Positions 2,047 through 51,933 of a DNA stretch of 54,976 nt are shown piece by piece. The position numbers and the translations under genes were made by a program. Within the stretch, counting starts at the first letter, position 1; each line of letters starts with the position of its first letter. The stretch is from a virus. The DNA lies in IMG/VR virus record IMGVR_UViG_3300012117_000001, positions 1 through 54,976 of that record; one strand, written 5' to 3'. The notes beneath the pieces are model-generated. The model ran no database searches and had not been told where the DNA came from. It saw only the letters and a program-made list of their open reading frames with translations.

Positions 2047-2759
2047 TATATCCAACCAATAAAAGCGGAACCAATATTCAATCCACCATTGAAGCAAACA
2101 GTACCCGTGAAGACACCACCATCCTTTGGAAGAATATTTAATTGTTGGCATGTCACTTCATGCGGGTTATCCATATCTTGGACATGATGGTTAAAAGAAT
2201 CTTGGTTATCCGCAGAAAATAAATTATCAATATACTCTGTATTGTATCCACCGATATCCTCAATGTTATCTTCGTGAGGATTATCAGGCCCTTTTTGATT
2301 TATATGTGTTGTAACTTGAGTATCAATCGCATCTACGCTATCAGTGTATTGTTCTTTATTAAGGGAATAAGAACATTGCCAATACTCATTATCGCTATCT
2401 GTTGGTTCAGAGGCTGTGTTCCCCTTCTGGCAAATCCATAATGAAGTACCATGTACACAAACAGAGCCTAGCAAATATGGGACATCTTCAAACCAATCAA
2501 AAAGACCATTGGTGGCAATCTCACTGATTTTCACATCTGTGATTTGCTGCAAGAAGTTTTGCCATTGTTCAGGCTCCTTCTCTCCATCCTGCCAACCTAT
2601 TGATTTATACCTATTTTCAACATATAATGCATGGGTTATATCAGTGTCAGGGTCAGTTGCTTCGAATTCTGCGTCTGCATTTTCACCCCAGATATTCCCA
2701 AGTTTTTGCCTGTTTGTACCTATAGAAGTTAGAACAACGAACGGAATGAATCTTAACAT
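2046..2759 (-). CDS. Proximal tail fibre segment / baseplate-attachment protein
   Basis: 237 aa, stop/start coupled to the distal fibre. It carries the same DNPH repeats (PDNPHEDNIEDIGG, MDNPHEVTCQQL) and follows the baseplate genes. Confidence 0.6.
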   Translation of the reverse strand: MLRFIPFVVLTSIGTNRQKLGNIWGENADAEFEATDPDTDITHALYVENRYKSIGWQDGEKEPEQWQNFLQQITDVKISEIATNGLFDWFEDVPYLLGSVCVHGTSLWICQKGNTASEPTDSDNEYWQCSYSLNKEQYTDSVDAIDTQVTTHINQKGPDNPHEDNIEDIGGYNTEYIDNLFSADNQDSFNHHVQDMDNPHEVTCQQLNILPKDGGVFTGTVCFNGGLNIGSAFIGWI

Positions 2760-4529: not shown

Positions 4530-4878
4530 ATGTCATTGAATCCTCAATCTGACCATATGTGCTTTCTGCGACAAATGAGATACTTACTTTTCGTTTAGAG
4601 TAATCGGGTTGGACGTTAACCCTAATTACATATTGGACATTATTTGTCTTGGATATAACGTTAGCTACCGCAGCTTGAATATCCGCTACTTTGACTTGTT
4701 TACCTAATAGACCTTCAAACCAAGGCAGACCTAATGTCCTGTCTTGCTGCCATTCTCCTAGCAAAGTAAGCAAACGAGATTTCACATTTTGTGCTACAAA
4801 ATCTAAACCTCCAGTTCTTGTAGCACCACGGCCAATAATAATGTCCCAATTTGAATCTAACTTTAAATTGTTTGACAT
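4522..4878 (-). CDS. Small baseplate wedge protein (P2 gpW / Mu gp46 position)
   Basis: 118 aa with an 8-nt overlap with the J-like gene. Assignment is positional. Confidence 0.55.
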   Translation of the reverse strand: MSNNLKLDSNWDIIIGRGATRTGGLDFVAQNVKSRLLTLLGEWQQDRTLGLPWFEGLLGKQVKVADIQAAVANVISKTNNVQYVIRVNVQPDYSKRKVSISFVAESTYGQIEDSMTYV

Positions 4879-4942
4879 TGAACAATGAGTCTTAATGTTG
4901 ATGTTGGGTATATTTACCCAAATTTATTTCTAGGTACATTTA

Positions 4943-5479
4943 ATGAAAGCTTTAGAATTTTACGAGATATATGCAAAGCTCAAGTTGGCTCATTCTAAGG
5001 TAAACAAAGTCTTCAGTGACCTTAACCTAAGCATTAGTGATTTGAAATTTCTGAAGTCGCAAAATCGTCAGCTCAGAGAGAATAACCTTAGAATCTACAA
5101 TGACCTTGAAAATTTAAACTCAAAAAACACCAAACTGAAATATGAGTTAGATAGTTCGTTGAGGGCGCTTATACTTCATGAGAAATCAATTGAAGGTTTA
5201 AATAACAAAGTTAACGCAGGTCTGCATAACGAAAAATTCTTACTAAAACAAATAAAAATTCTAGAGCAAAAAGTCCAAAATTTAAGTGTACCGAAGGAGG
5301 CTCCACGGAGAATCCAGACAATCCAGACAAGTTGGCAATCAGCGCCTGCACGTAAGATGGGGCCTGCTGTCCCTTTGGGTATGGAAGGATTCCGTGAAGT
5401 ACCTTCAGGATATGATGAAGTAATGCAGAATCAGATAGAAGACATGGGGTTAGATTATGACCCTAGTGAATGGGACTAA
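4943..5479 (+). CDS. Coiled-coil protein of unknown function encoded antisense to the baseplate operon
   Basis: 178-aa ORF on the opposite strand. The N-terminal 120 aa are heptad-rich (LKFLKSQNRQLRENNLRIYNDLENLNSKNTKLKYELDSS). A weak AGGT lies 8 nt before the ATG. It sits 4 nt tail-to-tail with the spike gene. Confidence 0.6.
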   Translation: MKALEFYEIYAKLKLAHSKVNKVFSDLNLSISDLKFLKSQNRQLRENNLRIYNDLENLNSKNTKLKYELDSSLRALILHEKSIEGLNNKVNAGLHNEKFLLKQIKILEQKVQNLSVPKEAPRRIQTIQTSWQSAPARKMGPAVPLGMEGFREVPSGYDEVMQNQIEDMGLDYDPSEWD

Positions 5480-5483
5480 CCAC

Positions 5484-6275
5484 TCATTGAGGTGCAATTG
5501 GGGCTTGCGTATCACTGCTACCACCGCCATCTGTCCAATCATATGGGTGTTGGTGAGTTTCAATCTGAACACCGTTTATGGTTTGGGTGATCTCCATCTT
5601 TCCAGTGATGTTGAGTGAGGCTTCACCACTCCCACCTTTGGCATTAACCCCACCATTTAGGTTTGACTCACCCATAACTGTAAGTGACTTGGTTGCGGTC
5701 ACATCACCATCGAGCTTAATTGCCTCAGCTTTCACTGTAGCAGTGCTGGTTGTTGTTGCTGTGATGTCACCATCTTTGCTTATGCTAATGGATGTGCTCC
5801 CAGACTCGATGTTGATTGTCCCATCACCTTTCAATGAAATAACTTGGTTATGTTCTGCGTTCCGCAGTTCCATACCGTCTTCAGAGAAGTTGCTTATCGG
5901 TGATGTCACTGGGTTAATACCAATGACTGCTACAGCGTTATTATAAGAGTACCTCTGGCCAAATTCTGGAGCAGGCCTCCCTTGTAACATACCTGCTTTA
6001 TCCTTGCCTTCCATCAACCAGTGGTCAATCCCACGCTGGGCGAAATGGATGTAGCATGGAGTTCCATCCGGTACAGGACAAGTCATTGACCAGCCGCCCC
6101 CTCGGAAGAATTGCACAGGAACTTTTGATAGCCGGTGTTTAGTTGCTGTGGTATACCCTGACTCCAACCCAATGCACAGTGTTTCTATCGCAATCTGAAT
6201 TTCTGCTGTCTGATCTGTAGAATCAAAATTGTAGATGAACCCAGGGTATGAAGTATTTAAGTCTTCATTATCCAT
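5484..6275 (-). CDS. Baseplate central spike (P2 gpV / Mu gp45-like)
   Basis: 263 aa. It has Gly/Thr-rich beta-helix-like repeats (GDGTINIESGSTSISISKDGDITATTTSTATVKAEAIKLDGDVTA). A C-terminal HQHPY resembles the H-x-H metal-binding spike apex. Confidence 0.6.
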   Translation of the reverse strand: MDNEDLNTSYPGFIYNFDSTDQTAEIQIAIETLCIGLESGYTTATKHRLSKVPVQFFRGGGWSMTCPVPDGTPCYIHFAQRGIDHWLMEGKDKAGMLQGRPAPEFGQRYSYNNAVAVIGINPVTSPISNFSEDGMELRNAEHNQVISLKGDGTINIESGSTSISISKDGDITATTTSTATVKAEAIKLDGDVTATKSLTVMGESNLNGGVNAKGGSGEASLNITGKMEITQTINGVQIETHQHPYDWTDGGGSSDTQAPIAPQ

Positions 6276-6636
6276 TAACTGTCTCGTCGATCATGTATAA
6301 AACCATATTGTTATAGTCTTTCACCTCGCTACCCAGAGTGTTTACATCAAATGCATACAGGTTCTTTAATGGTGATTGTAGATATTGCTCCAGGATATTA
6401 ATACCTGATTTAATTGGGATGCCATAAATTGCTTTAGTCCCCCTATCCCATTTCATATCAAAGAAATAGCACTGTAGAATTTTATTAGCATACACTGGTG
6501 AGATGGTTATCTCTTCACTATTGTACGAGAACTTCACCCCACGAGATGTATTAAATGGGATTGTTTTTAAAATACCTAACTGAAGTTTACCCCCTAGTAG
6601 AATGTTCGTAAGGGTGTTTAAACTATCTGAATTCAT
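6268..6636 (-). CDS. Hypothetical baseplate-block protein
   Basis: 122 aa, overlapping both neighbours by 8 and 4 nt. No recognisable motif. Confidence 0.5.
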   Translation of the reverse strand: MNSDSLNTLTNILLGGKLQLGILKTIPFNTSRGVKFSYNSEEITISPVYANKILQCYFFDMKWDRGTKAIYGIPIKSGINILEQYLQSPLKNLYAFDVNTLGSEVKDYNNMVLYMIDETVNG

Positions 6637-7364
6637 CTAATCAGTCCTTCTAAGGCAAACAGTCCAACTGACATACCCAACTTAATGAACTTTGAATAAT
6701 CCGTTTCATTTTCCAATACTTTATTAACAGCCATATCAGTATTTGATGCTGAAGTAACTTGGAGTTCCTCCATCATAATTTCTGCTGCAAAGACTGTTGA
6801 AGTATCTTTATCCTGAATGGTCTCTATCCCTGTCACTACACAATTAGAGTAGGCACCAAGAATTGTATTTACATATAAACGAGTGCCCTCACTCATAAAT
6901 TGACTAAAGAGTTTGAAAGCACTTTGAACCCTATCTTCACTTTCGAACGCCGTTTGAACTAATGCCGCTGTGTTACCAATTAAACCTAATAGTGGTAAGT
7001 CTAAGACATCAGCAGCCGCAGTTATACCGCCAGCTAGGCTAGCCTCCCATAAGGTGTTGTTAATCATGTTGGATGCAACGACACGGAGTTTTAAGATTCG
7101 ATTTTGTATAATACGGTGGTCAGAGACAATGAAACCATTGGACATTGGAAACTTCGTTACAATACTTTGAGCAGTGTGCCCTTCACTTGGCACAGCATCA
7201 AACTTAAATAACATGAAATTTCTGTAACTAGCTTTAGGGTTAGCTGGGTCATTAATTACTGGGACGTCAACTGGTTGGGATTCACTATCAACATATTCTC
7301 CTGCTGTACTTGCGGCCTTCTCCCACAAAATAATTGAAGGTGCTAGACCATAATTAAAATTCAT
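6633..7364 (-). CDS. Hypothetical tail/baseplate protein
   Basis: 243 aa between the hub-like and spike genes. A structural role is inferred from position only. Confidence 0.5.
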   Translation of the reverse strand: MNFNYGLAPSIILWEKAASTAGEYVDSESQPVDVPVINDPANPKASYRNFMLFKFDAVPSEGHTAQSIVTKFPMSNGFIVSDHRIIQNRILKLRVVASNMINNTLWEASLAGGITAAADVLDLPLLGLIGNTAALVQTAFESEDRVQSAFKLFSQFMSEGTRLYVNTILGAYSNCVVTGIETIQDKDTSTVFAAEIMMEELQVTSASNTDMAVNKVLENETDYSKFIKLGMSVGLFALEGLIR

Positions 7365-7371
7365 CTACTGA

Positions 7372-8448
7372 TTAACTATCTCCGTATGCAGAGGCGCACC
7401 ACTCTCTCCAGTTTCTTTCTATCGCACCCATAGTTGTATCAACACCATAGTTGCCGGTGATATCAGTCTGGAAATTCTGGGCATGAGTGGAACCATGATG
7501 GACTAAACTCACTATTTGATATAGTGAAGACATACCATTAGCCATCACTGTATTATCAATATTTCCAGCATATCCAAGATTATAGGATATGTAATTCTGC
7601 GTGGTATCAACACCATCTGGTGATATCAACTTACTAACATCAATAAGCATCCCAGGCATTATTGTTGGATTTAAATTCATGGATAACTCAAGTATCGCAA
7701 TTCCTGCCACAGGATTTTCAATTACTTGACCTGGGGTTACAACTATAGGTTCCCGTTCTGTAGCAATCTCGTTAACGATATCAGCAGAAGCTATTGAGGA
7801 TGGGTAAAATTCAATGAAGGAAGGCTGTAGGCTAAAATTCATATTAAATTCAGCACATAACTTTTGCACCTCTTGTATGAATGTTCCATGAAATGCCCTT
7901 CCTCTAGAAAACTTATATGAAAGGAGGTCAGAACTTACTCCCGACGTCTTATACCCTAGACCGGCTTGGCTTGTTAAAAGCTTAATTGCATCTTCAAGAG
8001 TTGCACCTGCTTGAGCACCAATCGTTATATCTCCGAGAGATATCTGTGTTACTTGGCTTACCTGTTGCGGGACACAATATAAGTGCACTATATTTTCTGG
8101 CAACCGTTTGTAAGAAACTGCATTAGTGATAGAACCAACGAAAACAGTTAATGTTGCATCCTCTGAGTCATACATATAATCAGATATGCCTGAGCTATCT
8201 ACATAACCAACACTCAATTTTATATTTAAGGCACCATGTGTTTTTCTTTGTAGTGACTTTATTTCTTCACTGCTGAGATTATATAGAGTAATAGTTCCAT
8301 AATCCCCAGCCCACCCCATCACTGAGTGATATTCAAAGTCTATTCTGTGTGTGGGAGTATCTGGGGTATCGGTTGACTTGTAGCCAAATAGCATATGCAC
8401 AGAGTTATCATCTGAAGTAACCTCAACAGAAACTTTTCTTAACCACAT
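7372..8448 (-). CDS. Baseplate hub-like protein (P2 gpD / Mu gp44 position)
   Basis: 358 aa and the first large gene after the tape measure region. Positional inference. Confidence 0.45.
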   Translation of the reverse strand: MWLRKVSVEVTSDDNSVHMLFGYKSTDTPDTPTHRIDFEYHSVMGWAGDYGTITLYNLSSEEIKSLQRKTHGALNIKLSVGYVDSSGISDYMYDSEDATLTVFVGSITNAVSYKRLPENIVHLYCVPQQVSQVTQISLGDITIGAQAGATLEDAIKLLTSQAGLGYKTSGVSSDLLSYKFSRGRAFHGTFIQEVQKLCAEFNMNFSLQPSFIEFYPSSIASADIVNEIATEREPIVVTPGQVIENPVAGIAILELSMNLNPTIMPGMLIDVSKLISPDGVDTTQNYISYNLGYAGNIDNTVMANGMSSLYQIVSLVHHGSTHAQNFQTDITGNYGVDTTMGAIERNWREWCASAYGDS

Positions 8449-8675: not shown

Positions 8676-9035
8676 TTAGAATTTCGAAACCTTATAAACT
8701 AAGTTCTTAAGGTTTCCTTCAACTTTAATATCCTCTTCATCCACTTTTCCAAGGTAGTTTGGGGTTGATACTTTTATCCCACAAGTAACAAGCCCATCAT
8801 TTGTGAAAGTCACTAAATTATCTACTATGGTGTACGTGGAGTCCTTGTCAGGATGGTTCAGTTGGATATCTTTGGCATAGTAATTACATCGGTTAAATGC
8901 CTCTACACTCAGTAAATCACGCTGTGCTTGCCGGACTGCTTGAGCCTGCATGTCAGCATATTCATCTGAGTGATTAGCGACTGCAAAAGCAGCAGCACTT
9001 TGAAAGCAGAGCACGATAAATATTATGATTCTCAA
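8676..9035 (-). CDS. Secreted/periplasmic protein of unknown function
   Basis: 119 aa with a signal-like N-terminus MRIIIFIVLCFQSAAAFA followed by a polar domain. It is inserted between the tape measure and hub genes. Confidence 0.65.
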   Translation of the reverse strand: MRIIIFIVLCFQSAAAFAVANHSDEYADMQAQAVRQAQRDLLSVEAFNRCNYYAKDIQLNHPDKDSTYTIVDNLVTFTNDGLVTCGIKVSTPNYLGKVDEEDIKVEGNLKNLVYKVSKF

Positions 9036-9053: not shown

Positions 9054-12000
9054 TTAAGCAACAATATTGTGAGTATTACCACCAACATTCAACTTGACGT
9101 CTTTTCTTTTAACTGACTTGTTATTGACCGTGACATCAGCTGAAGCAGTGCTGCCTTTTATATTCACATTCACATCGAGTTTTGTAGCGGGTTGTGCTGA
9201 ATTAGCATTAGTTAAGAATGGTGCTGCATTTGAGCCGGTGGTAATAGTGTTAAATCCAGCCCTAAAACTATTGTCAATACCGCGCAAATATATCTCTTCC
9301 TCATCAGTTAGGTGTTGCTTCCAACCTGATGGGTTTTTCTTAATTTGTGCATCAATTACACCTGGCCCTTCATGCATTGCTAAGGTAGTTGCAATCAGAT
9401 CGGAGCCATAATGTTTCATTGCCGCACCAAACAAATCATGACCAACTCTAGCTCGTTCCGCATCACTACCATCCTTTGCGGGAACAACCCCTAACCATGG
9501 ATGCTGTGCCGTTCCATCAGTGACTTGGTACAATCCACGCGCTGTCCCATGAATATTCTTAGCATGCGGGTCACCACCTGATTCCGCATGGATGTATGCA
9601 TGTTCCATGAGATGAATTATGTCAGCGCCAGAAGCACTCGCTTTTCCTATATCACCCGCTAGTGCCGCTACCGCAGCAGATGCAACTCTTCCGCTTTGAA
9701 CTGCCTGACTTGTGCCATCCGCTATTGCTCCTGTGATACCAGAGGAAACACCTGTTGAAAGCACTCCCTCCGCCAGATTTAACCCCATGTATCTCGGACT
9801 TAATGATATCTGAGAGTTGCGAAGGTCAGACATAGCGTTGGATGCTGCATCAGCATTAGCCTGATTCATTATGCTGTCATGTCTGCCAGCGTTATCAGAA
9901 AGGGTTGTATCATTTGCAGAGTAAGCTGCTGCTGCACCATTCAGTCCAGCCATAGACATCAAGCCAGCAAACTGCTGTCCAGTAAACCCCCGAGCTTTTG
10001 CTCGTTGAGCTGCAATAGCAACGAGTTGAGATGGGTCAGTAGTGCTGCGCACATCCTGAATAGTGATAAGCCCACGAGAGCCTACTACGATTCTTGATGT
10101 TGCAGTTGGGTCACCAACCGACAGTGTTGCTGCGGCATTTCCGATGTTGCCTGTTAGGTTATGTGCTTGCCCTTCATCCAAACCCAGTGCTTCAAAGTTC
10201 TGGTTAGATGTTGTGTATGCGTTCACATTAAAGATGCCGGCATCACTCGCCGCTGTGAATTCACCCTGCATTGCATCTATGCCATCACTAACCGCTTGAG
10301 CTGTGCCTACCAATGCAGCAACAGGCAAAGCTACTTCAGGCGCGGCTACAGATAAAAGTTTAAGTAGATTACCTGTAGCTCCACCGGGAGCATTACCAGC
10401 GAGCATCTGCTGAATAGCTGAGCCCACACCTTCTTTGGGCTCTTTCGCAAACGACTTGCCGGAGATGATGCCACGCATGTTGTGGTCAAACTCTGCCTTA
10501 GACATGGACTGGTCAAAGTCAGCATCTTCTTCCGTAGAAGTGTTATCTGGTCCTGATAGAAGTAATGGTTGTTTTCCTTCCGCGAAATCCCAGTTAGGAA
10601 CGTATCCTGAACCACCATTACCGGAACCACCACGACCGTTACCTGAAAGACCAAAACCAGATCTAACACCATGTCCGTATCCATAACCGGATGATGTGGT
10701 ATCACCCACTCGGTCATAACTATTGACGGTCGATTCATTCTTAGCGCGGATAAACTCAACACCTTCAGCTGTACCTCTCGCCACAGCTTTAGACATTGTT
10801 TCGAGGAATTCTTCCTTTGAGATTGAGCCTGACTCTACAGCACCTAGAAGTGAGCGCCCTTCTTTAATCATTCCGCCGAAGTGTTGCAACCTCTCGGCAT
10901 TCTGCGCTGCCCATTCAGGGTCTGCATGGACACGGTCAACGCGACCAAGCCAATGATATGGCTTTCCATCATTACCGTAGTTCTCACCGACCTGAGCAAT
11001 ATCGGCCCATTTGCGGCCAGTCACCGCCATTTGCATTTGTACTTGGTCTAAGTACTCAGGTCTGCTTGATGGGTCAAAGAATCGATTTGCAACAGGAGCC
11101 TTAAACTCAACCAGACCATCACTCCCAACTAATCCATCAGGGGAGACACCTAACCCAGGATATAAGTCATTCGTGACAAATCCTGTCTGCCCAACTTCTA
11201 CGCCAAATTTTGCACCATACTTTGAACGTCCAACAGCCTCCAATCGATGACCTCTGTCAAAATTCTGGTTATGCAGATTCTCAATCCCAAGTGGATTGAA
11301 ACCTACTGCACCAAAAATTGCTGACAATGGGTCACCGTGCTTATTGTGACCAAGCAAGGAGCCCGCTACCGAAGCAGAAACATTGTCGGCACGTAGTGCA
11401 TCCCACTCAGGGGAATTCTGGGCGACATTGTGGAATGTGATTCCACTGGTACTAATCTCAGTAGATCGTTGGGTGAATTCCAGTTCACTTGCAAATTTTG
11501 GTGTTGCAGCGCTGTTATTTATCGGAGCAGCAATAACACTTTGAACCATCGGCCCAACAAAATTAGAGTAGTCCTCTGAGCTTTTTCTGGAAGAAACCAG
11601 CGCCTCTGACAATGATGATGGGATAGTTATTGTAGCTGAGCGATCTTGATACCCCTCGGATAGGTACTCGATATCAGTGTCATGCTTTGATGTCTCACCA
11701 ATGGCGCGTCCAAGTTCAAGCATCCTCTCATTAACATTATCGAGATGTTCGTTAATCTGGTGTGGTGTAGATAATCCAGTTACCCCAGTTTGGTTGTTGG
11801 AAGCTGAACCGTAACCATACACTGCGGCAATACCACGCATATTTGTCCTGACAGACCTCATACCTTCTCTGTCAGGGATAATAGCTCCTGAGATTCCCTG
11901 AAGCAGATCATCTGAAATTGTCTGGGGAAGTATATCGGCGTAAGAGGTATAGGCTTCTTTACCCATAGCCTTCTCATGCGCAATCTGTGTCGCAATAGAT

Positions 12001-12749
12001 TGGATACCCGAGCCAAGGGAGGCTTGCAGCCTTCTGCTAACTTTCGCTACATCATGGGAATGTGCTGCTGAATCTGAGTAACCAGCCCCACTTACATATG
12101 ATGCTGCTACTGCTTCAATAGCTTGCTGAACCTGTAGACCGCCCAGTGATTTAGGTGTGCTGTACTCAGCCATCAGTTGTTCATCGTTACCATCATAGTA
12201 ACCAGCCATGCCGCCAAGGATATCCAGTCCACCAGCATTGCCTGTTGAGTAACCCTCAAATTTACTAAGGACGCCCCTCAACTCTCTCGGTAATGGGACA
12301 TAAGTCGAGTTTCGATATTCAGAAGGAATCTGGCTAAAGACATCAGCTGGTTCCACACCAGCTTGTCGCAAAGAAACTAATATATTGTTGTGCAAACTCT
12401 CATGCGGATTGTTATAAGCATATGCAAAAGCTTGAGCTCCACTATCGCTAGACATTAATGTCTCTGCAATTTCGGATGGGAGTAATGTATCAATATCCGA
12501 GCCAAGCCCTAATATTGATTGCCCGCTATAATATGAGTGTTCTTCCCCATGAGAATCTAAATAAATGTTTTCTTCTTCTAGAAGTTGGCTCATGCCAGAC
12601 AATGCTGCTGCACTGCTGGCAAGATATACTTCCCTAGCCAACTCTTTTTTACCCATTCGTGACGACATGGGCGCATTAAAACGTAGTGCTAATTCCGCTA
12701 GGTCTTCAACACCCATTTTCATTAAAGAAGCTAAATCGTATGACATCAT
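9054..12749 (-). CDS. Multidomain tape measure protein (HeH motif, YqaJ-like nuclease block, TMP region, SLT lytic transglycosylase)
   Basis: 1231 aa at the tape-measure position after the G/GT pair.
- N-terminus: MGVEDLAELALRFNAPMSSRMGKKELAREVY, a Rho-N/HeH-like motif.
- aa ~440-620 (nt ~10950-11430): SPEW..SAS..GHRLE..Y..LGVSPDGLVGSDGLVEFKAP, resembling YqaJ/lambda-exonuclease PD-(D/E)XK domains.
- A Gly-rich linker followed by an Ala/Gly-rich TMP-like region.
- nt ~9330-9615: SLT motif AESGGDPHAKN..GTARGLYQV. Confidence 0.8.
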   Translation of the reverse strand: MMSYDLASLMKMGVEDLAELALRFNAPMSSRMGKKELAREVYLASSAAALSGMSQLLEEENIYLDSHGEEHSYYSGQSILGLGSDIDTLLPSEIAETLMSSDSGAQAFAYAYNNPHESLHNNILVSLRQAGVEPADVFSQIPSEYRNSTYVPLPRELRGVLSKFEGYSTGNAGGLDILGGMAGYYDGNDEQLMAEYSTPKSLGGLQVQQAIEAVAASYVSGAGYSDSAAHSHDVAKVSRRLQASLGSGIQSIATQIAHEKAMGKEAYTSYADILPQTISDDLLQGISGAIIPDREGMRSVRTNMRGIAAVYGYGSASNNQTGVTGLSTPHQINEHLDNVNERMLELGRAIGETSKHDTDIEYLSEGYQDRSATITIPSSLSEALVSSRKSSEDYSNFVGPMVQSVIAAPINNSAATPKFASELEFTQRSTEISTSGITFHNVAQNSPEWDALRADNVSASVAGSLLGHNKHGDPLSAIFGAVGFNPLGIENLHNQNFDRGHRLEAVGRSKYGAKFGVEVGQTGFVTNDLYPGLGVSPDGLVGSDGLVEFKAPVANRFFDPSSRPEYLDQVQMQMAVTGRKWADIAQVGENYGNDGKPYHWLGRVDRVHADPEWAAQNAERLQHFGGMIKEGRSLLGAVESGSISKEEFLETMSKAVARGTAEGVEFIRAKNESTVNSYDRVGDTTSSGYGYGHGVRSGFGLSGNGRGGSGNGGSGYVPNWDFAEGKQPLLLSGPDNTSTEEDADFDQSMSKAEFDHNMRGIISGKSFAKEPKEGVGSAIQQMLAGNAPGGATGNLLKLLSVAAPEVALPVAALVGTAQAVSDGIDAMQGEFTAASDAGIFNVNAYTTSNQNFEALGLDEGQAHNLTGNIGNAAATLSVGDPTATSRIVVGSRGLITIQDVRSTTDPSQLVAIAAQRAKARGFTGQQFAGLMSMAGLNGAAAAYSANDTTLSDNAGRHDSIMNQANADAASNAMSDLRNSQISLSPRYMGLNLAEGVLSTGVSSGITGAIADGTSQAVQSGRVASAAVAALAGDIGKASASGADIIHLMEHAYIHAESGGDPHAKNIHGTARGLYQVTDGTAQHPWLGVVPAKDGSDAERARVGHDLFGAAMKHYGSDLIATTLAMHEGPGVIDAQIKKNPSGWKQHLTDEEEIYLRGIDNSFRAGFNTITTGSNAAPFLTNANSAQPATKLDVNVNIKGSTASADVTVNNKSVKRKDVKLNVGGNTHNIVA

Positions 12750-12754: not shown

Positions 12755-12979
12755 TTAGAGATTTATCCCGTCTCTCGGCTTCATCTTTTTACGTAAGTCT
12801 AAGATGTCATGGAATAACGCAACGTCCTCAATTGAGTACGTCCCATCCTCCAATTCATGTAACTTACATAAATCAGCAGCTTCAATAAGAGGACGGTGTA
12901 AGAAGTATTTTATATCTGGGAATTGTGGTGAGAGGTCTTCTACTTCATTTACTTCAGCTCTTCCGAATTCGATTGGCAA
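12755..12979 (-). CDS. T-frame extension of the tail assembly chaperone (expressed by -1 frameshift)
   Basis: The frame is -1 relative to the 144-aa ORF and stays open through the slippery site at 13024-13030. It has no independent ATG (the annotated start is TTG) and no SD. Confidence 0.6.
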   Translation of the reverse strand: MPIEFGRAEVNEVEDLSPQFPDIKYFLHRPLIEAADLCKLHELEDGTYSIEDVALFHDILDLRKKMKPRDGINL

Positions 12980-13383
12980 TCCACCGCCAACCGTTTCTGT
13001 TCGTTCATTTCGAGCCCTTGAACGAAAAAATCCTTGAAGTTAACCTCGCATACAAATGCAAACACTTTGCAAACAAGCATTAAGTCCCCATTATAAACAG
13101 AGTTGAATTCTGCCAATGAGACTTCTTTACCATCTCTATTTGCCAAGCAAACTGTGCGTTTAATAATTTCAGATAATTTATCATGCTGCGTCACAGTCAT
13201 TACACGAACTAGATTACCAAAATCAAAATCACCATTAATGAATGGGAACACATCTGCCCCCATTACATTAAGTAATTCGATTTGTAAATCCAGAGCTTTC
13301 GTTGCAGGGAGTTGTCGTACAAATACAGTTACGTCATCTCCTGCCTGATTTTTAAAATCACGCGAGCCGGTTTTACAAGCCAT
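12949..13383 (-). CDS. Tail assembly chaperone (gpG-like)
   Basis: 144 aa between the tail tube and tape measure genes. It contains an in-frame slippery heptamer near its 3' end. Confidence 0.7.
   Translation of the reverse strand: MACKTGSRDFKNQAGDDVTVFVRQLPATKALDLQIELLNVMGADVFPFINGDFDFGNLVRVMTVTQHDKLSEIIKRTVCLANRDGKEVSLAEFNSVYNGDLMLVCKVFAFVCEVNFKDFFVQGLEMNEQKRLAVDCQSNSEELK
13024..13030 (-). promoter_or_regulatory. Programmed -1 ribosomal frameshift site (T TTT TTC)
   Basis: The minus strand reads GAT TTT TTC, a canonical X XXY YYZ heptamer in the zero frame, 72 nt before the G stop. A -1 slip reads ..FFRSRARNERTETVGGGLPIEFGRAEV.. into 12755..12979. Confidence 0.7.
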
Positions 13384-13385
13384 TA

Positions 13386-13841
13386 TTAGTTACCTACCGA
13401 TGGATAAGTACCTGTGGTAATGTTCAACACTTCCACAAAGATTGACCACATATTCTGACCAATACTGATGCCACGAGTGATATTAGGTTGCTTGATGATA
13501 AAGCCGTTAGTGCCTTCAACAAGTACGTCACCCATTTTATCTACAATCTGCAACTGCATTGGTACCCAAAGAGATTTATTACCGGAGAGGCCTGTAGCTT
13601 GTGTAAGCTGAGCTTTCGCATACAAGACTTCATTCCAGTCAGATGTCATCAACAATGGAAATGCAATGTGTCCTGATTGGTCAGCTGAGGTTGCTACAGC
13701 TGCTTTACCACGTGCATCCATGACAGGCATATGCTGCACAGCATTTCGACCTGCGGTAATAATCGCATTCGTTGCTGGAAAACCGTCAACAGCAGAACCG
13801 TCAATTAAGAAATCAACGTCATAAAAGGAATACTGCTTCAT
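13386..13841 (-). CDS. Tail tube protein
   Basis: 151 aa immediately after the sheath gene. Size and position fit a contractile-tail tube. Confidence 0.7.
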   Translation of the reverse strand: MKQYSFYDVDFLIDGSAVDGFPATNAIITAGRNAVQHMPVMDARGKAAVATSADQSGHIAFPLLMTSDWNEVLYAKAQLTQATGLSGNKSLWVPMQLQIVDKMGDVLVEGTNGFIIKQPNITRGISIGQNMWSIFVEVLNITTGTYPSVGN

Positions 13842-13856: not shown

Positions 13857-15272
13857 TTATTGTACAAATGTACCAGAAATAGTAGCGCCTTGAAGAGCAC
13901 CAGTCCCGATGGCAATAAAGGAAGTTCCTTGCCAGATACGGGAGCCTTTTTCTCCTAACAAGTCTTCAATTGGTGTGGACTGGACGAGGTAGCCTTTAGG
14001 ATAAAACACCCCTTCACTATCATAGCCGGGACCAATTAACCCATTAGTAACACCAAGACGTAACCCATTACCAACAGCTTGGTTCACCATCGCCACACCA
14101 GTACCATCGAATGGAATCTTGGTCGTACTTTGATATTCGAGGTTGAAGATATTTGTTTGAATCTGGTTTGTTAACCAGTCAACACCTTGAACAGTGTCTG
14201 CCCATGTACCATCAGCCATGCGGCCATCGTAATAAATACCAACACCACCAGAATTCATGAACACATTACTATTAATTGCCTGTAAAGCAGATAATTGTGA
14301 TGTGTTAATATTCGCAGCGGTAATTTCTGGCATATCTTTGTACGCAAGAGTGATTGTTGACTTAGCTTGATTAAAATTGACTGTTGATAAACGACCACAA
14401 GCTGATACTTCTGGGTACTCACCTGCTTTCGCAGAGTAATTCATTAGTGTACGCATCAAGTTCATGCCAGCGATATCTTTAGCCTGGCACTCCAACCCAG
14501 CAGTCAGCATATTCACATCGTTAGAAGCATACCCATAGAATTTGCCGTTGGCTTCACACCATCTCGCGGTATCTTCCATGACGCTGGTATCACGATATTG
14601 CCGGTCAACTGCTACGAAATAGAAGAACTGACCAGTATCCAAAGCGTTAGTTAGGTACGTGGCAATGGTTGTGCCATCGCTACCATTTGTTAGCTTCCCA
14701 CCAAGGACTGTGAACCCTAATGCTTCAGCTAAATCCCCTGTATCACAGTAAGTCAGCGTTTCACTTGCACCGGATGCTGTAGTGGTAATAGAGAAAACGC
14801 CATCAGCCTGTGAGATTGTGCAGCCAGTTGGTATTACTCCCGCAATAGCATCTACAACAGCGTCGAAGTCTTCACATGCAGAGAGATCGACATCATCGGT
14901 AGTAGTTTTATCACCATCAAATGTGAAGCTCAGTGAACCCGCAGTGATGCCGTTGAGGGTGTCGATGTCTGCCAGGGTGCCTACGAGGGTTGCCGGTGCT
15001 GCATCATCCCCTAAGTCCCCAATACTTGCGACAACGAAGGTTTTAGGCTTCGGTTTCTGGGAGTAGTATGTAGAAGCAGCATTATAAATTTCACCTGAGG
15101 TATAATTATCCTCAACTTCACTCATACTATTAAATACCTGAATTGGTTGTTCACCAGCTACAGGTGTAAATTCGGGTGTTGCAAACAGTAATGGGCCATA
15201 CCCATTAGTGCCAGTTGCATTTGGTGAGATGCTAATACTAACATCAAACAAAAATGAAACAGGGATTGTCAT
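13857..15272 (-). CDS. Tail sheath protein
   Basis: 471 aa, followed by tube, chaperone pair and tape measure. This is the canonical contractile-tail order. Confidence 0.75.
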   Translation of the reverse strand: MTIPVSFLFDVSISISPNATGTNGYGPLLFATPEFTPVAGEQPIQVFNSMSEVEDNYTSGEIYNAASTYYSQKPKPKTFVVASIGDLGDDAAPATLVGTLADIDTLNGITAGSLSFTFDGDKTTTDDVDLSACEDFDAVVDAIAGVIPTGCTISQADGVFSITTTASGASETLTYCDTGDLAEALGFTVLGGKLTNGSDGTTIATYLTNALDTGQFFYFVAVDRQYRDTSVMEDTARWCEANGKFYGYASNDVNMLTAGLECQAKDIAGMNLMRTLMNYSAKAGEYPEVSACGRLSTVNFNQAKSTITLAYKDMPEITAANINTSQLSALQAINSNVFMNSGGVGIYYDGRMADGTWADTVQGVDWLTNQIQTNIFNLEYQSTTKIPFDGTGVAMVNQAVGNGLRLGVTNGLIGPGYDSEGVFYPKGYLVQSTPIEDLLGEKGSRIWQGTSFIAIGTGALQGATISGTFVQ

Positions 15273-26913: not shown

Positions 26914-27426
26914 TTATTCCAAGTGTTCTTGCAGATACTTGCGAACAAGTTCCTTCCTGGAATTAGCATTATTTGGCTTTGGGACTTCTATTCCAGCCAT
27001 AATAAGTTTTGCGGTTTGTTGGGCGGCTGGGAGTTTTGCAAAAGCAATAACCCTTTTGGCAATATTGGCATCACGAGGGGTTCCACCGTATCGTTCTTGA
27101 TAGGTAACAAGCCCATGACATTTATGGCAGAGAAGTTCTAAGTCATCTTCATTAACGAGAAGCATACGTGTAGCAAATTCACCAAAGTTTTCTAAAGTAA
27201 GAGTTCCTACCGTTTCTTTGTGGTTGACCTCTATTTCGGACGCTTTATAGAATTTACTGCAATGCTCACATTCATAATGCCATATCATCTTCCCGCCGCT
27301 GTTTTTCATTCTTATGCGTCGAGTTTGCAGAAGACCAAGCTTGACAGGATGCTTATTCCAGACTCGTCTGAGGCCACTTCTAAGCCAGTTTAAATACTGC
27401 TTCTCATCTTTGAGATAACCGTACAT
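26914..27426 (-). CDS. HNH endonuclease
   Basis: 170 aa with CEHC..EVNHKE..CHKCH. It has a 1-nt stop/start overlap with the FEN gene. Confidence 0.7.
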   Translation of the reverse strand: MYGYLKDEKQYLNWLRSGLRRVWNKHPVKLGLLQTRRIRMKNSGGKMIWHYECEHCSKFYKASEIEVNHKETVGTLTLENFGEFATRMLLVNEDDLELLCHKCHGLVTYQERYGGTPRDANIAKRVIAFAKLPAAQQTAKLIMAGIEVPKPNNANSRKELVRKYLQEHLE

Positions 27427-28460
27427 TAAGCTGCTGCAAGTTCCTCTGTTTCAATGTTTGCATCAACCCAGTTGCCATCGATAAGTCTTACAAGCTTCTG
27501 ATCACCCAAATCAAAGTAGATTTTCAATAATCCATTGAAATGCCACATCAAAGCCTTATCAGAATCGATAATGGTATTGACCATATACAATTGCCGACCG
27601 GAGGTAATCAAAGCCTGTTCCCAGGAGGTTCCGAAAACACGTTTGTACTGGGTGATAACACGCTGTAAACCTTGGGAATATGAAGTGCAGTCGTTCAGAA
27701 TATCAAATGCTTCCATAGCCCCGATACCTTCACGCTTTTCATACTCTTGACCAGCTTTCTTACCAGATTGATAGATCTTCTTAACTTTGATTCCGCAACC
27801 AATAACACCGTCTGTACCGTCACCGGTAAGAAGCTGCCAGAGGAAGAACTTAGTCCCAACTCCTTTGACCTCTTTCTTCGGCGTTTTACCTGCGCCTTTG
27901 ATAATCACACGGATTTCACCAAAACCTTTCACAGTTTCGGTCTTTTCACCCTTAGTTGAGGTTTCCCAGCTGTAATTAATGGAAGGGATTTGTTTGAGGT
28001 CTTTATCCAGACTACAAACGTAAATTTGAGTACCTTCTGGCCATTTCTCAGGTTTAGAAAGTGTTCTAATTTTATTATGCTTGCCGGTTGTTACCGTATA
28101 ATTGTATCTGGCAAAACATGCAATCAAATCATCTGCTTCAAGACCACGCATTGACATTGCATCCCAACACGTTCTTAAATGTGCTTTTGCATTATTAAGA
28201 TTTGTTGGCCGCCAAACACCATTACGGTTAGCTTTGTAGTCAGGATTAATTACAAATCTGAAGTTATCGTCTCCAGAAATAAAGACGTACATTACATCGA
28301 GGTTTAATCGGCGTTTAAGATATTCTAATTTTGCGTCCATACCCATCTGAATATGAGTAAAAGAAATGTCATCTTCTTCTTTGCCATATTCTTCAGCAGC
28401 ACTATGTGAGAATGCAACCATATCCCCGTCAATTAAGCCAACCTTAAGAGGCTTTGACAT
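27426..28460 (-). CDS. 5'-3' exonuclease / flap endonuclease
   Basis: 344 aa. The acidic clusters GLIDGDMVAF, LEADDLIA, DKDLKQIP and LLTGDGTDGVIG match the T5 D15 / T7 gp6 / Pol I 5'-nuclease family. Confidence 0.85.
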   Translation of the reverse strand: MSKPLKVGLIDGDMVAFSHSAAEEYGKEEDDISFTHIQMGMDAKLEYLKRRLNLDVMYVFISGDDNFRFVINPDYKANRNGVWRPTNLNNAKAHLRTCWDAMSMRGLEADDLIACFARYNYTVTTGKHNKIRTLSKPEKWPEGTQIYVCSLDKDLKQIPSINYSWETSTKGEKTETVKGFGEIRVIIKGAGKTPKKEVKGVGTKFFLWQLLTGDGTDGVIGCGIKVKKIYQSGKKAGQEYEKREGIGAMEAFDILNDCTSYSQGLQRVITQYKRVFGTSWEQALITSGRQLYMVNTIIDSDKALMWHFNGLLKIYFDLGDQKLVRLIDGNWVDANIETEELAAA

Positions 28461-37416: not shown

Positions 37417-37557
37417 TTACTTACGTTTAGCTAATGATGTTACAAATATTGCCAGCACCACACCAATACAAATACCCTCAAACAAAAGCTTAAGGGTATT
37501 GTGCATAGCGAGAGCAGCTAACAGTGCAATAACTGCGAGAGTTAGCTTTGCTTTCAT
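37417..37557 (-). CDS. 46-aa double-helix membrane peptide coupled to terB-like gene (below ORF cut-off)
   Basis: The ATG shares its A with the terB-like TGA (TGATG). The product MKAKLTLAVIALLAALAMHNTLKLLFEGICIGVVLAIFVTSLAKRK has two hydrophobic segments. Confidence 0.55.
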   Translation of the reverse strand: MKAKLTLAVIALLAALAMHNTLKLLFEGICIGVVLAIFVTSLAKRK

Positions 37558-37997
37558 CAGATGAAATCTTCCAGACGCATACCCAGAATCTGCCCAGCTT
37601 CCTTCAGAGCACGTTCTTCATGCTCATCAATAGTGCCATCACCTGCTAGCGCGATGGAGATCATATTGACGAATACTTCTGCTGAATCTGATTCATTATG
37701 GGCGATATCTTGCAGTTCTTTCTTGGCTTCAAAGCGAAGAACAGGCATACCAACCAGTTCAAATTTCTCACGATAGCGATTCAGATTCTGAGTGATTTCT
37801 GCACCAAAGTGAGCCAATTTATCATTGGTTTTGATGATTGCTTCCAAGCGCGAAATCTCTTTAGAATCGATGTCACCATCAGCTGCTGCAACCCAGATAG
37901 CACCGGCTACAATCGCTTGCATCAATTCACGATTTTCCAGTTTCTTAACAGCTGATTTTAATTCTGCTTTCTTCTTACCGAAGTTAATACCAAACAT
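37557..37997 (-). CDS. terB: TerB-family protein
   Basis: 146 aa with two TerB-type repeats (AAADGDIDSKEISRLEAII; ALAGDGTIDEHEERALKEAGQILG). It is collinear with E. coli TerB. Confidence 0.75.
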   Translation of the reverse strand: MFGINFGKKKAELKSAVKKLENRELMQAIVAGAIWVAAADGDIDSKEISRLEAIIKTNDKLAHFGAEITQNLNRYREKFELVGMPVLRFEAKKELQDIAHNESDSAEVFVNMISIALAGDGTIDEHEERALKEAGQILGMRLEDFI

Positions 37998-46207: not shown

Positions 46208-46339
46208 TTATATACTTCTCCAATTAATAGTTTTAAATTAAATTCTTAATTTATTCGATTGATAAAATGAATACGAAAATGGGCACTTATTCATTTTTAG
46301 ATAAATGCCCATGACTTATTTATTTTGTTATTCCAAACC

Positions 46340-46348
46340 CAACTAATG
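46340..46348 (-). promoter_or_regulatory. Candidate phage-RNAP promoter
   Basis: CATTAGTTG-GGTTTGG lies 133 nt upstream of ATG 46207. Confidence 0.5.
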
Positions 46349-46369
46349 CTAACTAGTTGACATAACTTA

Positions 46370-49232: not shown

Positions 49233-49243
49233 GTTTCCATACC

Positions 49244-49252
49244 CAACTAATG
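49244..49252 (-). promoter_or_regulatory. Candidate phage-RNAP promoter (tandem copy 1)
   Basis: CATTAGTTG-GGTATGG, located in the coding desert downstream of the RNAP gene. Confidence 0.5.
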
Positions 49253-51924: not shown

Positions 51925-51933
51925 CAACTAATG
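51925..51933 (-). promoter_or_regulatory. Candidate phage-RNAP promoter (distal, after the lysis cassette)
   Basis: CATTAGTTG-GGTTCCC lies 38 nt downstream (minus sense) of the endolysin stop. Confidence 0.45.

Follow-up and report, generated by a model that had tools for sequence, protein, structure and literature searches.

A YqaJ/lambda-exonuclease domain within the tape measure protein of a phiEcoM-GJ1/Y2-type myophage

Does a phage protein encoded in the slot of the tape measure protein (TMP) really carry a DNA nuclease and, if so, what might such an enzyme do in a virion? The question was raised by a sequence-only reading of the window (the whole stretch of viral DNA analysed here, 54,976 nucleotides), in which one long gene was proposed to combine a tape measure region with a YqaJ/lambda-exonuclease-like block, a lytic transglycosylase (SLT) module and an N-terminal HeH or Rho-N-like motif, and in which the nuclease was suggested either to attack host or competitor DNA or to process the ends of the phage genome on entry.

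The tape-measure-slot gene and its neighbours

The coordinates of the gene, its strand and the neighbouring tail genes all agree with the position that had been proposed for it (Table 1). The order of sheath, tube, chaperone with a -1 frameshift site, 1231-aa gene and baseplate hub is identical in eight related loci, and the tail module contains no other ORF that is a candidate for the TMP. The 1231-aa product matches phrog_19855 ('virion structural protein', E=1.5e-94) in the PHROG search, and its homologues in Mangalitsa, PP101, 4HA13 and PYps23T are annotated as tape measure protein. Because HMM searches returned no TMP-specific match for this protein and BLAST linked it to no TMP verified by structure, the assignment is positional. 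On that basis the protein is the TMP, and the phage a myophage with phiEcoM-GJ1 and Y2 as relatives. The window genome also encodes an ArdA-like protein, an investment in counter-defence.

Table 1. Coordinates of the features discussed, within the window and within the 1231-aa protein
Feature	Residues (aa)	Position (nt)	Strand	Basis or remark
Tail sheath gene		13857-15272	-	upstream of TMP gene; phrog_205 tail sheath, E=4e-84
Tail tube gene		13386-13841	-	upstream of TMP gene; phrog_280
Tail assembly chaperone		12949-13383	-	phrog_11820, E=5e-54; also phrog_4364
Slippery heptamer T_TTT_TTC		13030-13024	-	X_XXY_YYZ phase, in chaperone gene
Chaperone -1 frame extension ORF		12755-12979	-	-1 frame open into downstream ORF
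Tape-measure-slot gene	1231 aa	9054..12749	-	ORF listing; ATG start
HeH-like N-terminal motif	5-48	12606..12737	-	DNA-binding HeH not established
Conserved N-terminal region, mostly helical, fold unknown	~100-320	11790..12452	-	invariant columns in the alignment (A1)
YqaJ/lambda-exonuclease (PD-(D/E)XK) domain	426-656	10782..11474	-	Pfam, PDB, AF2, Foldseek
Pfam YqaJ core	448-579	11013-11408	-	PF09588
Active-site segment GVSPDGLVGSDGLVEFKAP (D538, E548, K550)	534-552	11094..11150	-	invariant residues, lambda Exo equivalence
Gly-rich variable-length linker	661-790	10380..10769	-	gap and composition analysis
Recurrent EEDADF motif in Gly-rich linker	740-745	10515-10532	-	
Hydrophobic segment, candidate membrane-inserting	795-816	10302..10367	-	Kyte-Doolittle
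Conserved Ala-rich tape-measure core	840-960	9870..10232	-	ungapped alignment
SLT lytic transglycosylase domain (catalytic E1056-S1057)	1053-1142	9324..9593	-	PF01464
Baseplate hub gene		7372..8448	-	downstream of TMP gene; phrog_196, E=2.7e-35
FEN-type 5'-3' exonuclease		27426..28460	-	replication module, separate from TMP; phrog_107, E=2e-51

A nuclease fold within a modular chain

All the peptides quoted in support of the proposed modules are located in the 1231-aa protein, including SPEWDALRADNVSASVAGSLLG at aa 446-467 and GHRLEAVGRSKY at aa 500-511. A Pfam scan of the full-length protein matched PF09588 (YqaJ) over aa 448-579 at 58.3 bits (cut-off 22; E=1.4e-15), LHK-Exo (PDB 3SYY) matched over aa 444-596 (E=1.2e-15), and PHROG exonuclease families matched at 4e-22 and 1e-19. 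Foldseek searches with the AF2 model of the nuclease domain (pLDDT 90.2, pTM 0.87) retrieved 3SYY (E=2.9e-13) and lambda Exo (3SLP/1AVQ, E~1e-10), and the profile of the family domain aligned about 200 residues with lambda Exo at 65.9 bits. The active site is complete, with R453, E504, D538, E548, K550 and Q569 corresponding, in that order, to R28, E85, D119, E129, K131 and Q157 of lambda Exo. The HMM search and the structure prediction with inspection of the D..(D/E)xK residues had been proposed as checks, and since the match is significant and the residues are present, neither of the outcomes that would have refuted the nuclease proposal (no significant YqaJ match, or missing catalytic residues) was obtained. 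We conclude that aa ~426-656 form a genuine YqaJ/lambda-exonuclease domain, beyond chance resemblance. To judge from its residues, the domain has everything that Mg-dependent 5'-3' digestion from a 5'-phosphorylated duplex end would require, and there are no biochemical data on it.

The N-terminal motif did not fare as well, and DNA binding of the HeH or Rho-N type could not be established: no Pfam match to it appeared at E<=10 in five members, the Rho N-terminal domain (2A8V) aligned with the family profile in the right register but only at E=1.7, and the AF2 model (helix 14-23, loop, helix 34-59) is of low confidence (pLDDT 63-76). The motif (aa 6-41) is kept in most of the family, 17 members showing it. 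The AF2 model that includes aa ~100-320 is helical and likewise of low confidence (pLDDT 46.6 overall). Behind the nuclease, the linker shows 53% gaps (locally up to 91%) and 10% identity against distant members, and its DADF motif is found in 15 of 25 family members. The Kyte-Doolittle 19-residue maximum of 1.76 at aa 795-816 is the highest of the whole protein and marks its sole strongly hydrophobic segment. The Ala-rich core aligns with distant members at 28-42% identity and without a single gap, G838, G893, D899 and G935 being invariant in it or near it. The Ala/Gly-rich tape measure region that had been described is borne out by the composition (19% Gly at aa 661-790, 20% Ala at aa 791-1040). 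SLT went unreported in the Pfam scan of the full-length protein; when the C-terminal 248 aa were scanned alone PF01464 passed its gathering score (23.4 bits against 21.3; E=4.5e-5), and the domain is clear in aligned homologues (up to 48.5 bits). The peptides AESGGDPHAKN (aa 1055-1065) and GTARGLYQV (aa 1068-1076) contain the residues E1056, S1057, G1058 and Q1075, invariant in the alignment, and the C-terminal SLT domain is real. From N- to C-terminus the protein is thus a modular chain of helical motif, helical region, exonuclease, Gly-rich tether, hydrophobic segment, Ala-rich core and SLT.

Spread and conservation of the fusion

The fusion is not specific to the window but is a clade-wide trait of the phiEcoM-GJ1/Y2 group (Chaseviridae) and its temperate relatives. 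About 80 sequenced genomes of this type have YqaJ within the TMP, and some 24 clusters (50% identity) with the same architecture were found among 1.84 billion proteins searched. Machine annotation already makes it visible ('YqaJ viral recombinase family protein', 'putative endonuclease'); in the searchable literature we found neither a report of a nuclease inside a TMP nor any discussion of this fusion. The homologues phiEcoM-GJ1 gp62, vB_EamM-Y2 gp76, PP101 orf67, Mangalitsa gp68 and 4HA13 gp67 have the same gene slot, length (1165-1279 aa), YqaJ position and SLT as the window protein, but only 25-29% overall identity with it, its closest relatives (47-58% identity) being metagenomic or prophage proteins. 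Unlike the described Chaseviridae, which are lytic, the window phage has an integrase.

Conservation was assessed in 25 long family representatives, less than 50% identical in every pair, and R453, E504, R508, D538, E548, K550, Y566, Q569 and Q571 are invariant in all 25. The nuclease occupies the same position throughout the clade, and no other part of the protein is as well conserved as its core: identity is 35% there (50% near the active site), compared with 30% in the TMP core and 23% in SLT. YqaJ was detected in 24 of the 25 members and SLT in 18, those without SLT still occupying the TMP slot. We take an active site invariant across such divergent representatives to indicate, on comparative grounds alone, probable selection for activity. 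The conserved residues are also binders of 5' phosphate and metal ions, so the domain could mainly grip the leading 5'-phosphorylated end with minimal or regulated catalysis, as a pilot or cap like T4 gp2 or Mu N, as a RecBCD shield or as a channel guide; its place in the N-terminal half would adjoin the DNA end in the virion (an orientation based on Pa193), and the HeH-like motif, unproven as a nucleic-acid binder, lies N-terminal to it. We consider this quite unlikely, since all the catalytic residues are invariant in 25 divergent lineages, the general-base Lys and the two metal ligands among them, a larger set than binding alone should need because pseudo-enzymes usually lose some such residues.

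Possible roles before and after ejection

Some TMPs, such as lambda gpH, are processed during tail maturation. The nuclease block, flanked by poorly conserved flexible linkers, could similarly be cut out or be absent from the mature virion, as an assembly-time module or a vestige, and the ~800 aa that remain without YqaJ and SLT match a ~120-nm tail at ~1.5 A per residue. However, the 4HA13 homologue (1204 aa, with YqaJ and SLT) ranked second in peptide abundance in CsCl-purified virions, at 64-67% sequence coverage (PMC9699118), and the strict conservation of the active site speaks against a vestige. We find such a loss highly improbable, although the 4HA13 coverage does not place peptides in the nuclease block, which could thus still be cut out by proteolysis during assembly.

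The reading we favor, tentatively and with confidence somewhat short of even, is that of a 5'-3' exonuclease which the virion delivers as a tethered part of its TMP and which acts on the defined terminal-repeat ends of the entering genome; no biochemical or genetic data bear on it. Genomes of the Chaseviridae-type family are linear and non-permuted, with ~2.3-3 kb direct terminal repeats; the window genome was assembled as a circle, so that its own physical ends are undetermined and defined ends are known from the family. In Pa193, which has tail Pfam families in common with the phiEcoM-GJ1/Y2 clade, the TMP (gp41) is trimeric, attaches to the tail tip through its C-terminus, contains an internal transglycosylase and gives discontinuous density in the lumen (PMC11456595); a tube lumen of 4 nm, and the TMP as a proposed inner-membrane conduit, have also been described (PMC9022992). 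Extrapolating from these related myophages, the trimeric TMP would lie unfolded in the 4-nm lumen and, owing to its C-terminal anchoring at the tail tip, would be inferred to leave C-terminus first after sheath contraction. Three folded 26-kDa domains exceed such a lumen side by side, so that an unfolded or staggered state, unobserved for the family, is required. The SLT domain would cut peptidoglycan, the hydrophobic segment and the Ala-rich core would engage the inner membrane and form a DNA conduit, and the N-terminal half would be the final part to emerge, immediately before the leading DNA end, its arrival in the cytoplasm not being established for myophage TMPs. Where the channel opens into the cytoplasm, the three nuclease domains, held on a flexible leash, may refold, plausibly as a trimeric toroid of the lambda Exo type, load on the defined terminal-repeat end(s) and resect the 5' strand before phage gene expression. 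The long 3' tails so produced would be poor RecBCD substrates and, being complementary between the ~2-3 kb direct terminal repeats, could allow annealing-based circularization or concatemer formation; in the integrase-carrying window phage annealing would give the circle needed for integration. Against this model, the phage could suffer if 5' resection of its entering genome went unchecked, and lambda Exo is far slower than DNA ejection.

Between the two functions that had been suggested, processing of incoming-genome ends fits better than attack on host DNA, function being inferred in both cases. Delivery coupled to the genome would allow an ejected domain to act ahead of phage gene expression: from the onset of infection it could degrade host, plasmid or competitor-phage DNA or the nucleic acid of a defence system. 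The genome also has counter-defence, the ArdA-like protein for example. Such an offensive role fits a lambda-Exo-type enzyme poorly, because YqaJ enzymes need a free 5'-phosphorylated duplex end (R453, the R28 equivalent, is invariant) and a circular chromosome or plasmid has none. Each virion would supply only some three copies (trimeric TMP), tethered by the hydrophobic segment, and Carltongylesvirus infection is reported with condensed, not rapidly destroyed, nucleoids (PMC13340011). We regard this role as very unlikely.

The enzyme might instead work before assembly, on free or chaperone-bound TMP, as a late cytoplasmic exonuclease for recombination or for scavenging host DNA, the fusion merely coupling its expression to the late genes without any post-ejection role. 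Conserved catalytic residues fit any enzymatic role, the relatives encoded on their own are ordinary recombination exonucleases of ~200 aa, which often adjoin RecT or other annealing proteins, and a folded nuclease domain fits the tube lumen poorly. However, the gene content shows that the genome already has a replication/recombination exonuclease apart from the TMP, the FEN-type enzyme (with weak NCBIfam matches to Pol I 5'-3' exo/Xni), and the ORFs scanned yielded no partner for single-strand annealing, so the TMP nuclease is no displaced Red-type recombination module. A late free exonuclease would also endanger the phage's own DNA ends, and an internal position fixed across a deep clade between flexible flanks is hard to explain without physical coupling. 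Overall a pre-assembly role seems unlikely to us.

Taken as a virion-delivered exonuclease, the TMP domain suggests that the phage delivers its own DNA-end-processing enzyme along with its genome. Virion-delivered DNA-end or anti-defence proteins include T4 gp2, Mu N, P1 DarB and the N4 virion RNA polymerase, which are pre-packaged, injected and directed at a cytoplasmic target before expression, as is proposed here; none is a lambda-Exo-type nuclease or part of a TMP, and the likeness may be regarded as a functional analogy only. Lambda exonuclease (Red-alpha) and LHK-Exo share fold, motifs and all active-site residues with the window domain, but they are free-standing, cytoplasmic, early proteins of ~200-230 aa paired with an annealing protein (Red-beta/RecT), whereas the window copy is embedded in a structural protein of the virion, 1231 aa long, whose expression goes with that of the tail genes. 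A parallel in principle lies in the cell-wall hydrolases embedded in TMPs, namely the Pa193 gp41 transglycosylase, the Rpf-like motif of mycobacteriophage TM4 and T5 pb2, where an enzyme module is threaded in, stored in the lumen and released at infection (PMC11456595); the SLT domain of the window TMP is such a module too. While the TMP-embedded enzymes described so far act on periplasmic peptidoglycan, the window TMP adds a DNA exonuclease whose substrate would be cytoplasmic DNA or the phage DNA itself.

The nuclease domain and its active site

The 1231-aa protein encoded at 9054..12749 on the minus strand had been proposed, before any database search, to carry a YqaJ/lambda-exonuclease-like block inside a tape measure protein (TMP). 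The ORF is real, all the peptides quoted in that sequence-only reading were found in their places, and the nuclease assignment was supported by a Pfam match to YqaJ (PF09588, aa 448-579) at 58.3 bits against a cut-off of 22 (E = 1.4e-15), as well as by matches of the block to PHROG exonuclease families (4e-22 and 1e-19); the cut-off of the narrower NCBIfam subfamily model TIGR03033 was not met (29.8 bits, cut-off 68). The closest relative of solved structure is LHK-Exo, a homologue of lambda exonuclease (lambda Exo) (PDB 3SYY; E = 1.2e-15 over aa 444-596). An AlphaFold2 (AF2) model of aa 426-656, built from 111 standalone homologues (pLDDT 90.2, pTM 0.87), retrieved LHK-Exo in Foldseek (E = 2.9e-13, target-normalised TM 0.75) and also lambda exonuclease itself (3SLP, 1AVQ, 3SM4 and 6M9K; E ~1e-10, TM ~0.64), and by this model and these matches the domain has the lambda Exo fold.

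Alignment of the family-domain profile to lambda Exo (65.9 bits) paired W449 with W24, R453 with R28, E504 with E85, D538 with D119, E548 with E129, K550 with K131 and Q569 with Q157. The lambda Exo sequence used in this mapping is presumably correct, its length being right and K131 falling where PDB 3SM4 ('K131A') needs it. The D...(D/E)xK signature expected of such a nuclease is complete, together with the additional Glu and Gln (E504, D538, E548, K550 and Q569), and these positions belong to a set that is invariant in all 25 family proteins (R453, G500, E504, R508, D538, E548, K550, Y566, Q569, Q571 and M574), R453 being the equivalent of lambda R28 in the 5'-phosphate pocket. We rejected a degenerate pseudo-enzyme on the invariance of every catalytic residue, and we are close to certain that a protein in the tape-measure slot carries an intact domain of the YqaJ/lambda-exonuclease type. 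By analogy, the trimeric TMP of the myophage Pa193 is only suggestive of a toroidal homotrimer for the nuclease block, there being no data on oligomeric state or on processive 5'-3' activity.

The tape-measure assignment and the rest of the chain

The placement of the gene in the tape-measure slot also held, since it lies downstream of the tube gene and between the genes of a putatively frameshifting chaperone and of the baseplate hub (see the table). A slippery heptamer, T_TTT_TTC, is found at 13030-13024 (minus strand) in X_XXY_YYZ phase in the chaperone frame, the -1 frame being open into the short overlapping ORF, and a -1 slip is predicted from the sequence to yield a G/GT-like product joining 12949-13383 and 12755-12979. 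Programmed frameshifts of the G/GT type are a characteristic feature ahead of tape measure genes. No other tape measure candidate was found among the ORFs of the tail module. The same order of tail genes was seen in phages phiEcoM-GJ1, Y2, PP101, Mangalitsa and 4HA13, in a prophage within a 1.2-Mb contig and in two divergent metagenomic phages; the loci compared include L002, L003, L005, L007, L008, L009 and L010.

Neither Pfam nor NCBIfam reported a TMP-family profile for the 1231-aa protein, and BLAST-level similarity of its C-terminal half among 50,697 phage genomes was confined to its own clade, that of the phiEcoM-GJ1/Y2-type (Chaseviridae) myophages and their temperate relatives, with no structurally verified TMP. 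The assignment thus rests on position, elimination, composition and the proteomics of a homologue. TMP families are very diverse, so that the missing profile match weakens the assignment without excluding it. Under a rule of ~1.5 A per residue, 1231 aa would correspond to a tail of ~185 nm, and the ~800 aa remaining without the YqaJ and lytic transglycosylase (SLT) blocks to one of ~120 nm; tails in the clade measure 110-166 nm, that of the present phage being unmeasured. The labels 'T4 gp5 analogue' and 'tail fiber' of older GenBank notes are not supported by position, as a separate hub gene follows and fibre genes lie elsewhere. We conclude that the protein is very likely the TMP, which homology does not prove.

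Two side observations concern this module. The 119-aa ORF between the tape measure and hub genes begins with a signal-peptide-like N-terminus (MRIIIFIVLCFQSAAAFA) and has no match in Pfam, PHROGs or NCBIfam; the gene could be a moron with a secreted or periplasmic product, or it could encode a tail component. In L010, a divergent metagenomic relative, the chaperone is separated from the YqaJ-bearing protein, here shorter (962 aa), by two long ORFs not called by the source, 4869-6416 (515 aa) and 6626-7678 (350 aa), and the tape measure may be split there.

Features of the phage genome and of the 1231-aa protein (genome positions in nucleotides; protein positions in aa)
Feature	Position	Strand	Remarks
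Baseplate hub	7372-8448	-	downstream of the 1231-aa gene
119-aa ORF	8676-9035	-	downstream of the 1231-aa gene, between tape measure and hub genes
Short ORF overlapping chaperone	12755-12979	-	PF21829/DUF6889, phrog_4364
Tail assembly chaperone	12949-13383	-	upstream; phrog_11820, E = 5e-54
Tube-type virion protein	13386-13841	-	upstream
Tail sheath	13857-15272	-	upstream in transcription; phrog_205, E = 4e-84
Anaerobic ribonucleotide reductase NrdD	35417-37273	-	
TerB-like 'tellurite resistance' protein	37557-37997	-	
Small SSB	41612-42019	-	phrog_7364; ends in DFDDEIPF, the classic SSB C-terminal tip
ArdA-like anti-restriction protein	42518-43072	-	
T7-like RNA polymerase	49580-51463		phrog_414, E = 5e-59
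Tyrosine integrase	52995-53933	-	PF00589, E = 9e-25; phrog_1, E = 1.7e-51
Winged-helix protein (HTH_46)	53979-54659	+	divergently transcribed; adjoins integrase
Gly-rich linker	aa 661-790		directly after the nuclease; length highly variable
Hydrophobic segment	aa 795-816		the only strongly hydrophobic one
Ala-rich core	aa 840-960		conserved, gap-free; then a variable stretch, SLT and a short tail rich in beta structure

The SLT domain had likewise been proposed. It was not reported in the full-length Pfam scan of the protein; when the C-terminal 248 aa (984-1231) were scanned alone, PF01464 (GH23) scored 23.4 bits against a gathering score of 21.3. Together with the invariance of the catalytic E1056-S1057-G1058 in the family alignment, where Q1075 is invariant too, and with the scores of homologues, which reach 48.5 bits, this fragment score indicates that the proposal holds. 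The suggestion of an N-terminal HeH/Rho_N DNA-binding motif remains unproven, although aa 6-41 look Rho_N/HeH-like by eye and are conserved in most members. Pfam searches with the 60-aa N-termini of five members gave no match at all, even at E <= 10, and the family profile found the RNA-binding N-terminal domain of Rho (2A8V) in the PDB in the correct register but only at E = 1.7. AF2 placed helices at 14-23 and 34-59 with a 10-residue connector (pLDDT only 63-76), and its model of aa 1-430, obtained from a 6-sequence alignment, was poor (pLDDT 46.6) and unfit for structure search, the region appearing helical with low confidence. Within the otherwise unalignable Gly-rich linker, 15 of the 25 members share an (E/D)DADF motif, here EEDADF at aa 740-745 (10515-10532, minus strand). 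Acidic and ending in Phe, it is reminiscent of the tips of SSB-type proteins; the motif is unexplained and could be a docking or processing site.

Distribution of the family and its genomic background

When the nuclease block was compared with the 50,697 phage genomes, the best matches were all to phiEcoM-GJ1/Y2-type phages, within their homologue of this large tail gene, the next-ranking ones being ordinary exonuclease genes of ~200 aa that often adjoin RecT-like genes. The C-terminal half of the protein matched ~80 genomes, of Escherichia, Erwinia, Yersinia, Pectobacterium, Proteus, Pantoea and Aeromonas phages. Word-indexed protein searches with the full-length sequence and with the family alignment had yielded only six close relatives each, and the wider spread came to light when the block alone was searched exhaustively against 1.84 billion representative proteins. 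Among the 2957 relatives thus obtained, ~24 proteins (50%-identity clusters) take the top ranks and precede almost every standalone enzyme; they are 840-1446 aa long, with the block at aa ~430-680. YqaJ was detected in 24 of the 25 family proteins and SLT in 18, and two members lacking SLT still lie between chaperone and hub. In comparison with 18 distant members, conservation is highest in the YqaJ core (35% identity, rising to 50% at aa 521-560), followed by the Ala-rich core (30%), the SLT domain (23%) and the remainder (10-20%).

An artefact of assembly or annotation, or a fusion by frameshift, can be set aside because independent genomes, from at least five host genera, and metagenomes all have this single ORF with its domains in the same order. 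A recently arrived mobile nuclease or an intein-like insertion was also rejected, although no dedicated search for splicing motifs was made, since the block keeps one conserved position in ~24 clusters at 50% identity and the embedded copies outrank nearly all standalone YqaJ proteins. This ranking points to one old capture, and placement and conservation pattern together indicate that it was followed by sustained selection for catalysis.

The first 113 bases of the window are 100% identical to positions 54864-54976, so that the window represents one whole phage genome, circular as assembled and 54,863 bp long, whose physical termini are not established. All major genes are on the minus strand. 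No near-identical phage record was found, the sole match being 101 nt within the chaperone gene. The phage shows the Chaseviridae traits of a 52-56 kb genome, a myovirus tail module (sheath, tube and baseplate) and a T7-like single-subunit RNA polymerase. Members of that family are strictly lytic, a criterion that an integrase-encoding phage does not meet, and its TMP shares no more than 25-29% identity with the TMPs of named members. On these two grounds, and without a core-gene phylogeny, we call the phage a relative of Chaseviridae and not a member. Homologous YqaJ-TMP genes in the Lelliottia wanjuensis chromosome (L006), where integrases adjoin, and in a 1.2-Mb contig (L007) imply that the clade has temperate relatives. 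A tRNA search for an attachment site found none.

Could the block be a misplaced recombination module? It does not meet the criterion for a two-component recombinase of the Red, RecET or YqaJK type, its gene being adjoined by tail genes. No annealing protein (RecT, Red-beta, Erf or Sak) was found among 30 non-structural ORFs scanned against PHROGs (ORFs below 90 aa left out), SSB being the only find. The replication module already has a FEN-type exonuclease, and the genome also encodes SSB. With no annealing partner among the ORFs scanned, we argue against reading the block as a Red-type module out of place.

Several further elements of the genome were recorded. A 219-nt direct repeat of 85% identity (44313-44531 and 45566-45784) lies within paralogous early ORFs (43863-44921 and 45299-46207), both of which match phrog_26483 and phrog_13152, of unknown function. 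The sequence AACCCAACTAATGCTAA occurs three times in the early region at 88-100% identity (46336-46352, 49240-49256 and 51921-51937), two copies being inside longer 32-nt repeats, and is a candidate for a phage-specific promoter or terminator; according to the ICTV profile of Chaseviridae, promoters have not been identified. In a 662-aa tail fibre ORF (163-2151, minus strand) a T4 gp34-type trimerisation domain (PF21446) is joined to a Caudo_TAP domain for tail fibre assembly (PF02413) at the C-terminus, unlike L007, where the two parts are separate adjoining genes.

Virion evidence from a homologue and a possible role at genome entry

The homologue in phage 4HA13 (1204 aa, with YqaJ at 453-589 and an SLT domain) gave, as a 128-kDa protein, the second most abundant peptide signal in CsCl-purified virions, with 64-67% coverage by LC-MS/MS (PMC9699118). 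That study gives no peptide positions, and removal of the nuclease block by proteolysis before virion maturation is not excluded; neither is action of the nuclease in the cytoplasm before assembly. In the same virions the SSB of 4HA13 reached 62% coverage (PMC9699118 Table S2), which may reflect contamination or co-packaging with the nuclease-bearing TMP. Our results establish a protein in the tape-measure slot, presumably a virion protein as judged from the 4HA13 homologue, with a complete lambda-Exo-type active site under long-term purifying selection. The TMP of Pa193, whose tail proteins have Pfam families in common with the clade, is a trimer with its C-terminus bound to the tail tip and an internal transglycosylase, and it has been proposed to be unfolded in the lumen and to refold once released (PMC11456595). 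The tube lumen is ~4 nm wide and TMPs are thought to form a conduit through the inner membrane (PMC9022992).

If the TMP chain leaves the tail C-terminus first, the order of its domains would mirror the layers that it meets, the SLT domain corresponding to the wall and the hydrophobic segment and core, by inference, to the membrane. The last parts to come out would be the nuclease and the N-terminal half, flexibly tethered at the channel's cytoplasmic mouth and next to the leading end of the DNA. Three TMP chains per tail would match the trimeric toroid of lambda Exo, and the three domains could assemble on the leading end. Enzymes of the lambda Exo type need a free 5'-phosphorylated duplex end. 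In the clade, genomes are linear, are not permuted and end in direct repeats of ~2.3-3 kb, and the obvious end of this kind at entry would be the phage's own terminal repeat, which might be resected ahead of any phage gene expression. The resulting 3' tails would be resistant to RecBCD and complementary between the two repeats, allowing circularisation or the formation of concatemers; circularisation would be relevant to the integrase-bearing phage described here, temperate members then integrating.

That a TMP-borne nuclease processes the genome ends at entry is a possibility that we advance tentatively, its activity being inferred. The fuller proposal, in which the TMP is a delivery device whose three injected lambda-Exo domains resect the leading terminal-repeat end to leave a RecBCD-resistant, annealing-competent genome, is more speculative. 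A nuclease that mainly binds or protects the DNA end is not excluded. The same holds for an attack on the DNA of the host or of competitors, although this agrees poorly with the enzyme's requirement for ends and with its low copy number. Fixed in this position across a clade, such an exonuclease implies that a myophage TMP comes, at least in part, into contact with DNA or the cytoplasm, and that an enzyme is pre-packaged for a problem of early infection, whether this is protecting the ends, circularising a terminally repeated genome or attacking other DNA. This bears on the role of TMPs after ejection in contractile-tailed phages, on the storage of globular domains in a 4-nm lumen and on the survival of free ends against RecBCD before gene expression.

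There is also a practical use, as the present labels of the homologous gene in GenBank (matches H1-H165) are inconsistent, including 'tail fiber', 'tape measure protein', 'virion structural protein', 'putative endonuclease', 'tail tube initiator protein' and hypothetical, and in Aeromonas phage phiA050 the 1259-aa ORF (L001, 3599-7378) is not annotated as a single gene. The domain itself is already visible in databases, one homologue being named 'YqaJ viral recombinase family protein' by NCBI and one GenBank record reading 'putative endonuclease'. In the searchable literature we found no report of a nuclease inside a TMP and no mention of YqaJ alongside any name of the clade. If the proposed resection at entry is true, this would be the first nuclease known within a phage tail and the first recombination step pre-loaded in a virion. 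TMPs are known for their cell-wall-degrading modules, embedded peptidoglycan hydrolases being familiar, and not for enzymes acting on DNA, whereas here a lambda-type exonuclease, catalytically intact as judged by its residues, is fixed in the TMP of a clade comprising ~80 sequenced coliphages and phages of Erwinia, Yersinia, Pectobacterium and Aeromonas, several of them biocontrol candidates, and temperate relatives. We accordingly place the 1231-aa protein, as a new and divergent member, in a family that already exists but has not been described, and which extends the theme of the enzyme-carrying tape measure.
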